Of a DNA stretch of 64,000 nt, positions 36,247 through 39,251 are shown piece by piece; position 1 is the stretch's first letter, and every line of letters begins with the position of its first letter. A program made the translations under genes and the position numbers. The notes beneath the pieces were generated by a model. That model saw only the letters and a program-made list of their open reading frames with translations, was not told the origin of the DNA and made no database searches. This DNA is from Folioceros fuciformis (lineage: Eukaryota): the NCBI GenBank assembly GCA_049999805.1, contig JBNGIO010006406.1, forward strand, positions 1 to 64,000, read 5' to 3'.

Positions 36247-39200
36247 ATGTCTATGGCAAGTGGTGATTGCACCCTTGCAGGGGCTTTAGGGAGCACGGAG
36301 GATGATCTTATACTGTTGACAGATGGCAAGGTAGCATGGGTCCCAGAAACTTCTTCGATTAAGGTTAAGAATGAGGATCGGGACAAGAAGGAGAGGGAAA
36401 GAGATGGCTGGAGCCCGAGTGCAACTTCATCCCTTCTTGATGCATTTGGGGAGAAGTATGCAAAGGTACAAGGTGGTCATCTCCGGATAAAAGATTGGGA
36501 GGAGCTTACTAGTGCTGTCAATGCCCGTTGCAACGGAGAGCGGTCTCCCAAAAGTGTAGATCAGTGTAAGAATAAGGTTGACTCCCTCAAGAAACGCTAC
36601 AAGTTGGAAAGATCGCGAAACCGAAGATCGGCATCTGGCAAGATCATCAGTGTCTGGCCTTGGTTTGAGAGGCTGGATGGTCTGATTGGTCATATAGCAC
36701 AAGGAAGCTTGCTTGGACAGCAAGCCGCCAGTAGTGGCAGCGGTGCAGGCAGCAGATTGAAGACTGCAGCGAGGTCCTCGCCAGACAGGGACAGAAAAAG
36801 GAGGAGGAATGATACAGATAGCAAGCAAATTTCCAAGGCTCAGCTCAAAAAGGAGGTCAACTTAGTCAAGCAAGTGCCAGAGCAAGCCCACCTGAGACGA
36901 GCAAGTACAATAACCTTCCTGTTTTCGTTTAAGACGAGTGAAAAGGAAGTCGCCATGCACATTTGAAAGTGGGTTACGCACATCGTAATTCTCATTGTCT
37001 GACTAGCGTGGTTTACAGGGACTTGACCAAGATGTCAGTGAATCAGAGGAGGAGCAAGATGATCGAGTAATGTGGGAGCTTTCAGCACTGACTCCTCTAG
37101 ATGGGCGCTATGCCCGCAAAGTGAAGAAGCTGAGGAAGATCTTCTGCGAGCATGGGCTTATATGCTATCGTGTATTTGTCGAGGTTCTGTGTTATCCTGT
37201 GCTGTTCTGTGGTTTTCCTTCAAGCTGTTGAATGAATGTCCCTCCCTCTGATGGACAGCTCGTTGACTGACAAGCATTTTGCTGTCGCGGAGGTTGACAG
37301 TACAGTTGCTTATTCAGTTGCCATTTGCAGGTCCGGTGGCTCCAGATGCTCTCACAACTCCCTGAAATAAAGGAAGTGCCAGCATTCAGCTCAGAGGCGA
37401 GACTCATTCTGGAAGAGACCATCTCTAGTTTCAGCGTGGAGAGTGCTCTTGCCGTGAAGAAGGTGGAGAGGATGATGAATCATGATGTTAAGGCTGTGGA
37501 ATATATATTGAAAGAAAAATTCAAGGCCCATCCTGAGTTGTCCAAGGTCAGATGGCTTCGCTGGCAATTCCACATTTCCTCATTGTCGACTCTATTCCGT
37601 TGGTTAACCGTCTCTCCTCGTCGCCGTTCTCAGGTGGTAGAGTTTGTACACTTTGCTTGCACATCAGAGGACATCAACAACCTGGCACATGCGTTGATGC
37701 TCAGAAATGCACTCCACACTATCATGCTCCCTGCGATGGACAGGGTCATTGCGGCAATACGGTCACTTGCACATGAATATGCAGGGATTCCAATGATCTC
37801 ACGTGTGCATGGCCAGGTATATCTCCTACAGAGAAAATATTTGCAGTGGCTGTACCTCAACATGATGCTTGTTTTGATATTATTGCAGATGTCGTCGCCA
37901 ACGACTTTAGGGAAAGAGATGGCGAATTTCTGCTTCAGGTTACATGAACAACGTGAGGAAGTTGCCAAGGTGAAGATAAAAGGAAAAATGGCTGGAGCGG
38001 TCGGAAACTTCAACGCCCATGTTGTTGCTTATCCTGAAATCAACTGGGAGATAGTTGCTGAGGAGTTTGTTACGTCACTGGGCATCAGCTTCAATCCCTA
38101 CACGACACAGGTTGTCTGCTCACCCGCAACTATGTGAAGTCTGTAAAAGGCTCAAGCTTCTTTAGAGAGTACCATGTGAATGCTCCTGTTGTCGGCAGCT
38201 GCTATTAAAAATTAAGCATGCCTTCTCCGTGCAGATTGAGCCACATGACTATATTTCACAGCTGTTCGACGACATATCACGCTTCAATACCATTTTGCTG
38301 AACTTCGACAGAGATGTTTGGGGATATGTATCTTTAGGTTATTTCCGACAGGTTGTCGTTGTCTATTTCATCATTGGCTGCAATGTCAGGCTCATCATCC
38401 CGCAATACTGACAATCAACTTTGACGTGGCAGCGACTGTTGCCTGGTGATGTGGGAACCGCAGCCATTTTGGCAAAGGCCAGTCCTATCGATTTTGAAAA
38501 CAGCGAGGGTAACTTGGGGATGGCTAATGCGAACTTCCTGCACATGAGCTCGAAACTACCTGTTTCGCGCTGGCAGGTCTCGATTGATTTTTGGACTTAC
38601 CAGGGAGTGTATAAGTGAGCTGAGCGCCTTCAATGTGATTTCGTTTGCATGCTTTTGCAGCAACTTACGAACAGAATTTGTGGGTGGGTTGTCCTTTCCA
38701 GCAAGACAAGTCCGAATCCACAGTCCTCCGGTACATGGGTGTGGGTCTTGCGCAGTCATTGATTGCATATGGAAGTACACTTAGAGGAGTGAGCAAACTG
38801 CAGGTCGGGCCCTCTCTCTCCCTGCACCTCCACCGCGAGTTTACTGTTTTCGTCGTGACTTGCCTTGTTCAGCCCTCTTAGCAAAAAAGGATCCTTGCTT
38901 GCAGGTGGATGAATCGCGGATTCACGATGATCTGGCAACGTCATGGGAAGTTATGGCAGAGCCGATTCAAATAGTAAGTTGTTCAGCTGTCTGCCGCCTA
39001 TTGAGGCGTGAAGGGGTACAGCATGCAGACTAAGTTTAGGTGTGGCAAACCTGTAGATGATGCAGAAGTATGGGATCGAAAGCCCGTGCGAAAAGCTGAT
39101 GGAGCTCACGCGTGGCCAGGCAATCACGAAGGACAGTATGCACCATTTGGTCCAGTCATTGAATTTGCCGCCTGAAGCCAAGGAGCGCCTTCTTCTCCTC

Positions 39201-39251
39201 ACCCCTATGACCTATCTTGGCAACGCTGAGTCTCTGGCTCGGCGTGTATGA
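36247..39251 (+). CDS. Trihelix (Myb/SANT-like) DNA-binding domain fused to an adenylosuccinate-lyase-like domain, ~673 aa, 10 exons
   Basis: Exons 36247-36855, 37019-37183, 37331-37546, 37634-37816, 37889-38110, 38235-38351, 38433-38576, 38702-38803, 38905-38973, 39057-39251; all GT-AG and phase 0, no stops. Trihelix [41 protein letters not shown]; PurB motifs [41 protein letters not shown]. Confidence 0.85.

Follow-up and report, generated by a model that had tools for sequence, protein, structure and literature searches.

This study concerns a candidate chimeric gene in a 64,000-nucleotide stretch of DNA from Folioceros fuciformis (GenBank assembly GCA_049999805.1, contig JBNGIO010006406.1, positions 1 to 64,000; hereafter, the window). 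At positions 36247-39251 on the forward strand, a single exon encoding a trihelix DNA-binding domain is followed by nine exons that encode an adenylosuccinate lyase (ADSL)-like fold. The degenerate active site of this fold is the most solid new fact of the present analysis, and the gene as a whole is most aptly viewed as combining a DNA-binding domain with a non-catalytic module of enzyme origin. A fusion of the two parts by splicing is plausible, and the junction itself is the weak point of that reading.

Gene structure and domain content

The gene model comprises ten exons, all of which are multiples of three in length, separated by nine introns of 72-163 nt that without exception carry GT-AG boundaries, and it specifies a protein of 673 aa, in agreement with the length and exon number proposed in the original prediction, which had been made from the DNA letters alone. 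Its component features, all on the forward (+) strand, are as follows.

36247-36855 (+): exon 1, 203 codons, encoding an N-terminal region, the trihelix domain and a Ser/Gly-rich and basic linker
36403-36678 (+): trihelix (Myb_DNA-bind_4) DNA-binding domain, residues 53-144, identified by Pfam
36787-36813 (+): basic run RDRKRRRND, a putative nuclear localisation signal (NLS)-like element
36856-37018 (+): candidate intron 1, 163 nt, GT..AG, phase 0
37019-37183 (+): exon 2, encoding an acidic linker (37025-37063) and then the start of the ADSL fold
37331-37546, 37634-37816 and 37889-38110 (+): exons 3-5, Lyase_1 core, identified by Pfam
38235-38351 (+): exon 6
38433-38576 (+): exon 7, containing the degenerate SS loop
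38445-38486 (+): SS-loop region, replacing the GE[IV]GSSTMPHKVNP of homologues
38702-38803, 38905-38973 and 39057-39251, including the stop codon (+): exons 8-10, ASL_C domain, identified by Pfam

The open reading frame (ORF) of exon 1 begins at ATG 36247 within a stop-to-stop frame spanning 36244-36966 and, if left unspliced, would continue to the stop codon at 36964-36966 to yield a product of 240 aa. Exon 1 matches the Pfam family Myb_DNA-bind_4 (PF13837) with an E-value of 3.1e-14 and 53.6 bits, against a cut-off of 27, and in an alignment with its 150 best relatives (alignment A1) it retains all eleven of the trihelix columns that are invariant or at least 90% conserved, the conserved Trp and other residues of the three-helix core being present. 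The full trihelix domain that had been claimed for this exon is thus borne out, and the claimed basic run is likewise found, being partly conserved as DRKRK in P0124, a trihelix protein from another species that is considered in detail below.

Upstream of exon 1, at 36169-36218 and 29 nt ahead of the trihelix start codon, an inverted repeat of 18 nt with 94% complementarity encloses a loop of 14 nt; the surrounding segment of 101 nt has a predicted folding energy of -43.2 kcal/mol (z -4.4), a value that none of 200 shuffled sequences equalled. This element could represent a hairpin of the 5' untranslated region (UTR) or a palindromic binding site. Two short upstream ATGs, placed by eye at about 36228 and 36233, lie between the repeat and the start codon.

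The nine ADSL exons, all of which are in phase 0 and whose eight introns measure 72-147 nt, encode a fold of the Escherichia coli type. A Pfam match to Lyase_1 on exons 3-5 (E 3.3e-21) is accompanied by ASL_C matches on exons 8-10, so that, together with Myb_DNA-bind_4, all three domains for which a check had been proposed are matched on the exons of the model. The corresponding NCBIfam match is PRK09285, adenylosuccinate lyase (E 3.1e-73). Across all 450 residues of the fold, the spliced ADSL sequence shares 58-65% identity with canonical ADSLs from mosses, liverworts, ferns and conifers. The transit-peptide region is absent: the N-terminus is provided either by the trihelix exon or by Met 37070 directly at the fold. 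This ATG in exon 2, two residues ahead of the conserved start of the ADSL fold, represents an alternative start for a stand-alone product of 453 aa, the frame being open only from 37007.

Phylogenetic placement employed a 43-row tree of the window sequence and 42 of 120 ADSL proteins, hand-picked for taxonomic spread. The ADSL-like part groups inside the land plants and is weakly placed as sister to the vascular plants, with a support of 85 in the approximate likelihood-ratio test (SH-aLRT). Its end branch measures 1.13 against a median of 0.34, and its root-to-tip length is similar to that of the Selaginella ADSL, a working enzyme. No second ADSL copy was found within the 64-kb window. A tRNA-Arg(CCT) gene (39694-39767, -) lies on the opposite strand, 440 bp beyond the stop codon of the ADSL-like part, and after it the sequence becomes AT-rich and gap-ridden (GC 0.27 at 40001-42000).

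The degenerate active site of the ADSL-like part

The original prediction described a complete PurB-type domain without lesions; the reading frame is indeed intact, but the catalytic SS loop has been replaced, as have further motifs of the active site. Where homologues carry SSTMPHKVN, the window sequence reads TAAILAKAS: the first Ser is changed to Thr and the second to Ala, the P, H and N are lost, and the K is kept. Among 240 ADSL homologues the SSTMPHKVN motif occurs 233 times, some proteins containing two copies, while two homologues carry near variants that differ by a single or double residue and eleven are truncated proteins that lack the region; the version in the window is unique. 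The same replacement is seen in the alignment to PurB structures of E. coli and others (PDB 2PTR/7T24).

Loss of conserved residues extends beyond the loop. For a count of near-invariant columns, the ADSL-like part was aligned with 113 homologues taken from a set of 123 proteins, three trihelix-uridylate kinase (UMP-kinase) proteins and seven proteins of at least 700 aa being omitted. Of the 123 near-invariant columns, 103 are kept and 20 are changed, mostly in active-site motifs. Eight of the changed columns belong to the catalytic SS loop, the others affecting TNHD (T to M), THGQP (T to V), WQRDLTDS (now WQQDKSES) and one later Arg; pairwise alignments additionally reveal a Pro-to-Met change in THGQP. 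The catalytic His of the HGQ motif (E. coli His171) is kept at 37808-37810, between the T-to-V and P-to-M changes, and the GRY, NHD, TSED and QIEPHD motifs are also retained.

In a passage of PMC11880804 the GSSxxPxKxN loop is described as characteristic of the entire aspartase/fumarase superfamily, and, for the superfamily member Tad1, replacement of the first loop Ser by Ala is stated there to abolish activity, while the same change of the second Ser leaves 3%. For PurB itself, a passage of PMC2917274 presents the loop Ser (E. coli Ser295) as the proposed base and His171 as the acid, with the loop Lys contacting the succinyl group. Because the catalytic Ser and the P, H and N of the SS loop are replaced, the ADSL-like part has very probably lost lyase activity and would constitute a dead-enzyme domain. 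The loss of the catalytic loop, which had not been seen in the original prediction, fits the non-enzymatic use of the ADSL fold that was proposed there.

Continued lyase activity of the ADSL part, perhaps through an altered chemistry in which the base is the Thr that stands in place of the first loop Ser, is highly improbable. The case for it can draw on the retained catalytic His, loop Lys and motifs listed above and on the hydroxyl group that Thr still offers. It is opposed by the near-uniformity of SSTMPHKVN among the homologues, by the loss of P, H, N and the second Ser alongside the first, and by the literature excerpts cited above, which assign the role of proposed base in PurB to the conserved loop Ser (PMC2917274) and according to which Ser-to-Ala replacements in this loop abolish or nearly abolish activity in a member of the superfamily (PMC11880804). 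Alternatively, the ADSL-like exons might be a pseudogene, a non-functional partial duplicate in the 3' part of an otherwise ordinary trihelix gene, in keeping with the destroyed catalytic loop, the 20 changed columns, the missing transit-peptide exon and the fact that no orthologue of the ADSL-like part was found among the ADSL matches listed. However, the SS loop has undergone at least 12 nucleotide changes in 42 nt, and yet all 453 codons and all 16 splice dinucleotides of the eight introns are without lesion. Assuming that 4.4% of point changes create a stop, as measured on this coding sequence, that indels arise at one tenth of the substitution rate and that two thirds of them shift the frame, the probability of no lesion is about 1e-4 at a neutral divergence of 0.05 per site. 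The changes, moreover, cluster in active-site motifs while 103 near-invariant columns are kept, and the root-to-tip length is like that of working ADSLs such as the Selaginella enzyme, all of which leaves a pseudogene improbable.

Because the frame and splice sites are intact despite the heavily substituted loop, and because the losses cluster in the active site, the sequence record indicates that selection acts on the ADSL-like part at the protein level, its fold apparently kept and its catalysis given up. A fold kept without catalysis implies that the ADSL-like part is translated.

The junction, the orthologue P0124 and the rarity of the architecture

The donor AAGGAG|gtcaac at 36855/36856 and the acceptor tttacag|GGA at 37018/37019, both in phase 0, are present as had been reported. 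The candidate intron they define is, at 163 nt, near in length to the other eight, and its donor, GAG|GTC, resembles the other donors of the gene, seven of eight of which have G at position -1. Both parts are on the same strand and lie within one gap-free stretch (32288-39922), bounded by runs of N at 32188-32287 and 39923-40022. The distance from the stop codon of the trihelix ORF to ATG 37070 is only 104 bp, and thus there is no room for a 3' UTR and a promoter. Between the acceptor and ATG 37070 lie 17 open, acidic codons, the linker having been correctly anticipated in the original prediction, and these codons have the highest coding score of all segments (+0.130, over 51 nt only). In alignments they match acidic residues located ahead of the mature N-terminus of liverwort ADSLs, a weak similarity that is no proof of homology. 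As a translated duplicate with neither a first exon nor a promoter of its own, the ADSL-like part needs an upstream exon.

An exhaustive HMMER search of 1.84 billion representatives returned P0124 as the sole close relative of exon 1. The two sequences align from residue 1 (E 1.6e-86, 73% identity), sharing the start Met and the N-terminus, with 31 of 52 identical residues in the N-terminal region, 86 of 92 (93%) in the domain and 30 of 59 (51%) in the linker. After the donor, identity falls to 10 of 43 positions (23%) with seven gap columns, and this fall fits an intron at the predicted position.

Several observations weigh against a spliced fusion. Fourteen GT and 17 AG sites yield 50 in-frame, stop-free GT-AG pairs, so that an in-frame junction is to be expected by chance. 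The 108-nt tail of the trihelix ORF beyond the donor (36856-36963) has a coding score of -0.014, within the range of true exons, and ATG 37070 is placed exactly where a free-standing bacterial-type ADSL would begin. P0124 is a trihelix-only ORF call of 245 aa on a 14,964-bp contig of a sequencing-run assembly. Divergence from it is little higher in the tail, where a hand count gives changes in 13 of the first 21 codons, than in the linker, where 49% of residues differ, and its codon following the ..KE is F rather than V (GTN). If the codon alignment, judged from protein only, holds, the donor GT at 36856 thus appears not to be conserved, and a Val five codons upstream could represent an alternative donor in P0124. 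Furthermore, the database searches made returned no orthologue of a trihelix-ADSL fusion protein, and the gene, for which a single related sequence was found, seems confined to one lineage.

Much of this evidence would equally suit two separate products, i.e., the 240-aa trihelix protein ending at 36964-36966 and a 453-aa cytosolic ADSL-like pseudoenzyme initiated at ATG 37070 from an internal or alternative promoter, which might regulate or co-assemble with active ADSL. That the only orthologue is a trihelix-only call, that the donor GT is apparently not conserved in it, that ATG 37070 lies two residues before the conserved fold start and that the coding score of the tail is not intron-like all agree with this possibility. 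Conversely, a spacing of 104 bp is too small for separate UTRs and a promoter, and the open, acidic and coding-like stretch before ATG 37070 resembles the N-terminal flank of canonical ADSLs. The trihelix-only form of P0124 is silent on splicing because an ORF caller reports an unspliced frame whatever the true transcript. We consider two products possible but rather unlikely. An adjacency created by chimeric assembly can be invoked on the grounds that the scaffold is gapped, with six N runs in the window; as both parts are contained in the uninterrupted stretch 32288-39922 and the ADSL-like copy represents a diverged paralogue rather than a canonical gene in the wrong place, an artefact of this kind is scarcely credible. 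Taking these points together, we lean towards exon 1 and the ADSL exons forming a real fusion protein, its splicing being predicted from sequence features.

To determine how common the architecture is, the domain content of the best 150 of 613 relatives of exon 1 (E<=1e-3) was examined with Pfam. Myb_DNA-bind_4 was present in all 150 and AA_kinase in nine, while neither Lyase_1 nor ASL_C was detected in any of these best 150; by blastp, a UMP-kinase-like part was recognised in 14 of them. Three matches were longer relatives of exon 1, and all three combine a trihelix with a UMP-kinase. Other one-off partners among the 150 were Complex1_30kDa (3), BolA (1), MazG (1, another nucleotide-metabolism fold), rhaM (1) and SAM_LFY (1), some of which may be merged gene models. 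In the reciprocal direction, PF13837 was found in none of 120 and none of a further 120 ADSL relatives among the matches listed for exons 3-5, a query that included two read-through introns and gave best identities of 55% and 51%. No ADSL-like ORF of at least 143 aa from a relative was found, shorter ORFs not having been searched, and a scan of JGI (Joint Genome Institute) metagenomes for a fused orthologue found nothing. Full-text literature searches did not retrieve a trihelix with adenylosuccinate lyase, and those for trihelix with uridylate kinase, or for trihelix, Anthoceros and domain architecture, retrieved nothing relevant. The claim that a trihelix-ADSL fusion is undescribed therefore holds for the best 150 trihelix relatives, the 240 listed ADSL relatives and the literature searched.

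The original prediction was right that trihelix-UMP-kinase fusions exist; of the long relatives of this trihelix domain, they are the nearest. In a 71-row tree of the window domain and the best 70 of the 150 relatives, the window sequence and P0124 form a pair of their own with an SH-aLRT of 100 and a long stem, outside the 31-row UMP-kinase clade, the backbone being weakly supported. Direct origin of the trihelix exon from a trihelix-UMP-kinase gene is not shown by this topology; no Pfam match to AA_kinase was found on the gene, and UMP-kinase parts gave no tblastn match anywhere in the window.

Elsewhere in the window, an uninterrupted ORF of 1217 aa at 19447-23100 (+) encodes an SMC protein with SMC_N and hinge domains, whose best NCBIfam matches are prokaryotic SMC models, below the cut-offs of these models. 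An intron-less state is unusual for a plant nuclear SMC gene, and whether this ORF is organelle-directed or horizontally acquired is worth a look. Two single-ORF PLS-type PPR proteins with E motifs, of 1258 and 1433 aa, are encoded at 7500-11276 (-) and 48727-53028 (-), respectively; long proteins of this type are typical of lineages with heavy organellar RNA editing. The window also holds an F-box/Kelch gene, a pectinesterase gene and, at 55597-62954, copia-type retrotransposon ORFs with gag, integrase and RVT_2, one of which is 1141 aa in length. This gene content, the shortness of the introns and the place of the ADSL-like part in its tree suggest a non-seed land plant as the source, and a hornwort or a lycophyte would be compatible with them.

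Proposed origin, related systems and implications

It is proposed that a partial duplicate of a nuclear ADSL gene, lacking the transit-peptide exon and beginning at the apparent ancestral second exon, came to follow a trihelix gene immediately after its only coding exon, and would be expressed through that gene. Removal of the intron at 36856-37018 would yield a 673-aa protein consisting of the trihelix, the basic NLS-like run, the acidic linker and the ADSL fold. Lacking the SS loop and several substrate-contacting residues, the latter would not cleave adenylosuccinate or SAICAR and may be retained under selection as a folded module. A tetramerising scaffold is typical of the aspartase/fumarase superfamily, and the likeliest role of the fold would be to provide such a scaffold, making the DNA-binding domain multivalent; it may also serve as a pocket for a purine-pathway ligand. 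We infer the splicing of exons 1 and 2 as well as the nuclear location, the oligomerisation and any ligand binding of the fusion, and regard this explanation, that of a chimeric trihelix-dead-ADSL gene, as probable on balance.

Canonical plant plastid ADSLs, e.g., P0011 (Sphagnum-type), P0013 (Araucaria) and P0030 (Marchantia), likewise possess Lyase_1 and ASL_C, whereas the window copy is without a transit peptide, has an altered SS loop, TNHD, THGQP and WQRDLTDS, and has a trihelix exon ahead of it. The trihelix-UMP-kinase proteins (PF13837 with PF00696; P0125 of Adiantum, P0128 of Davidia and P0131 of Aristolochia) offer a precedent for the architecture, as these nearest long relatives also carry an N-terminal trihelix, a linker and another nucleotide-enzyme fold, their C-terminal fold being an amino-acid-kinase/UMP-kinase rather than ADSL. 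They are the best-scoring relatives of the trihelix domain, with 40-48% identity. The Arabidopsis trihelix-UMP-kinase protein is presumably At3g10030. In a passage of PMC6686422, At3g10030 is assigned to the SIP1 trihelix subfamily.

A further parallel is provided by delta-crystallin, an inactive argininosuccinate-lyase paralogue that was recruited to a non-enzymatic role. There too, an aspartase/fumarase-superfamily fold is kept as a tetramer without, or independently of, catalysis; delta-crystallin differs in belonging to another branch of the superfamily, in being an animal protein and in having no DNA-binding domain. Its membership of the same superfamily is listed in a passage of PMC11880804.

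A more far-reaching possibility, which we consider doubtful, is that of a nuclear trihelix factor whose dead ADSL domain binds a purine metabolite and, as a tetramer, couples its level to transcription; the candidate ligands would be adenylosuccinate, SAICAR/ZMP-type intermediates, AMP and fumarate. Ligand sensing and a link to purine status are, at this point, pure conjecture. Direct metabolite-sensing transcription factors are, to our knowledge, scarce in plants. If the gene product were such a factor, it would, together with the trihelix-UMP-kinase proteins, point to a class of plant sensors that combine a trihelix with a nucleotide-enzyme fold; it would represent a testable candidate for an enzyme-derived sensor and would shed light on the uncharacterised trihelix-UMP-kinase proteins. 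Should the junction be spliced, the gene would present an undescribed architecture, the combination of a plant-specific DNA-binding domain with a purine enzyme that is catalytically dead. Were the two parts expressed separately instead, the ADSL paralogue, intact but with its SS loop replaced, would still constitute a new pseudoenzyme of the aspartase/fumarase superfamily.

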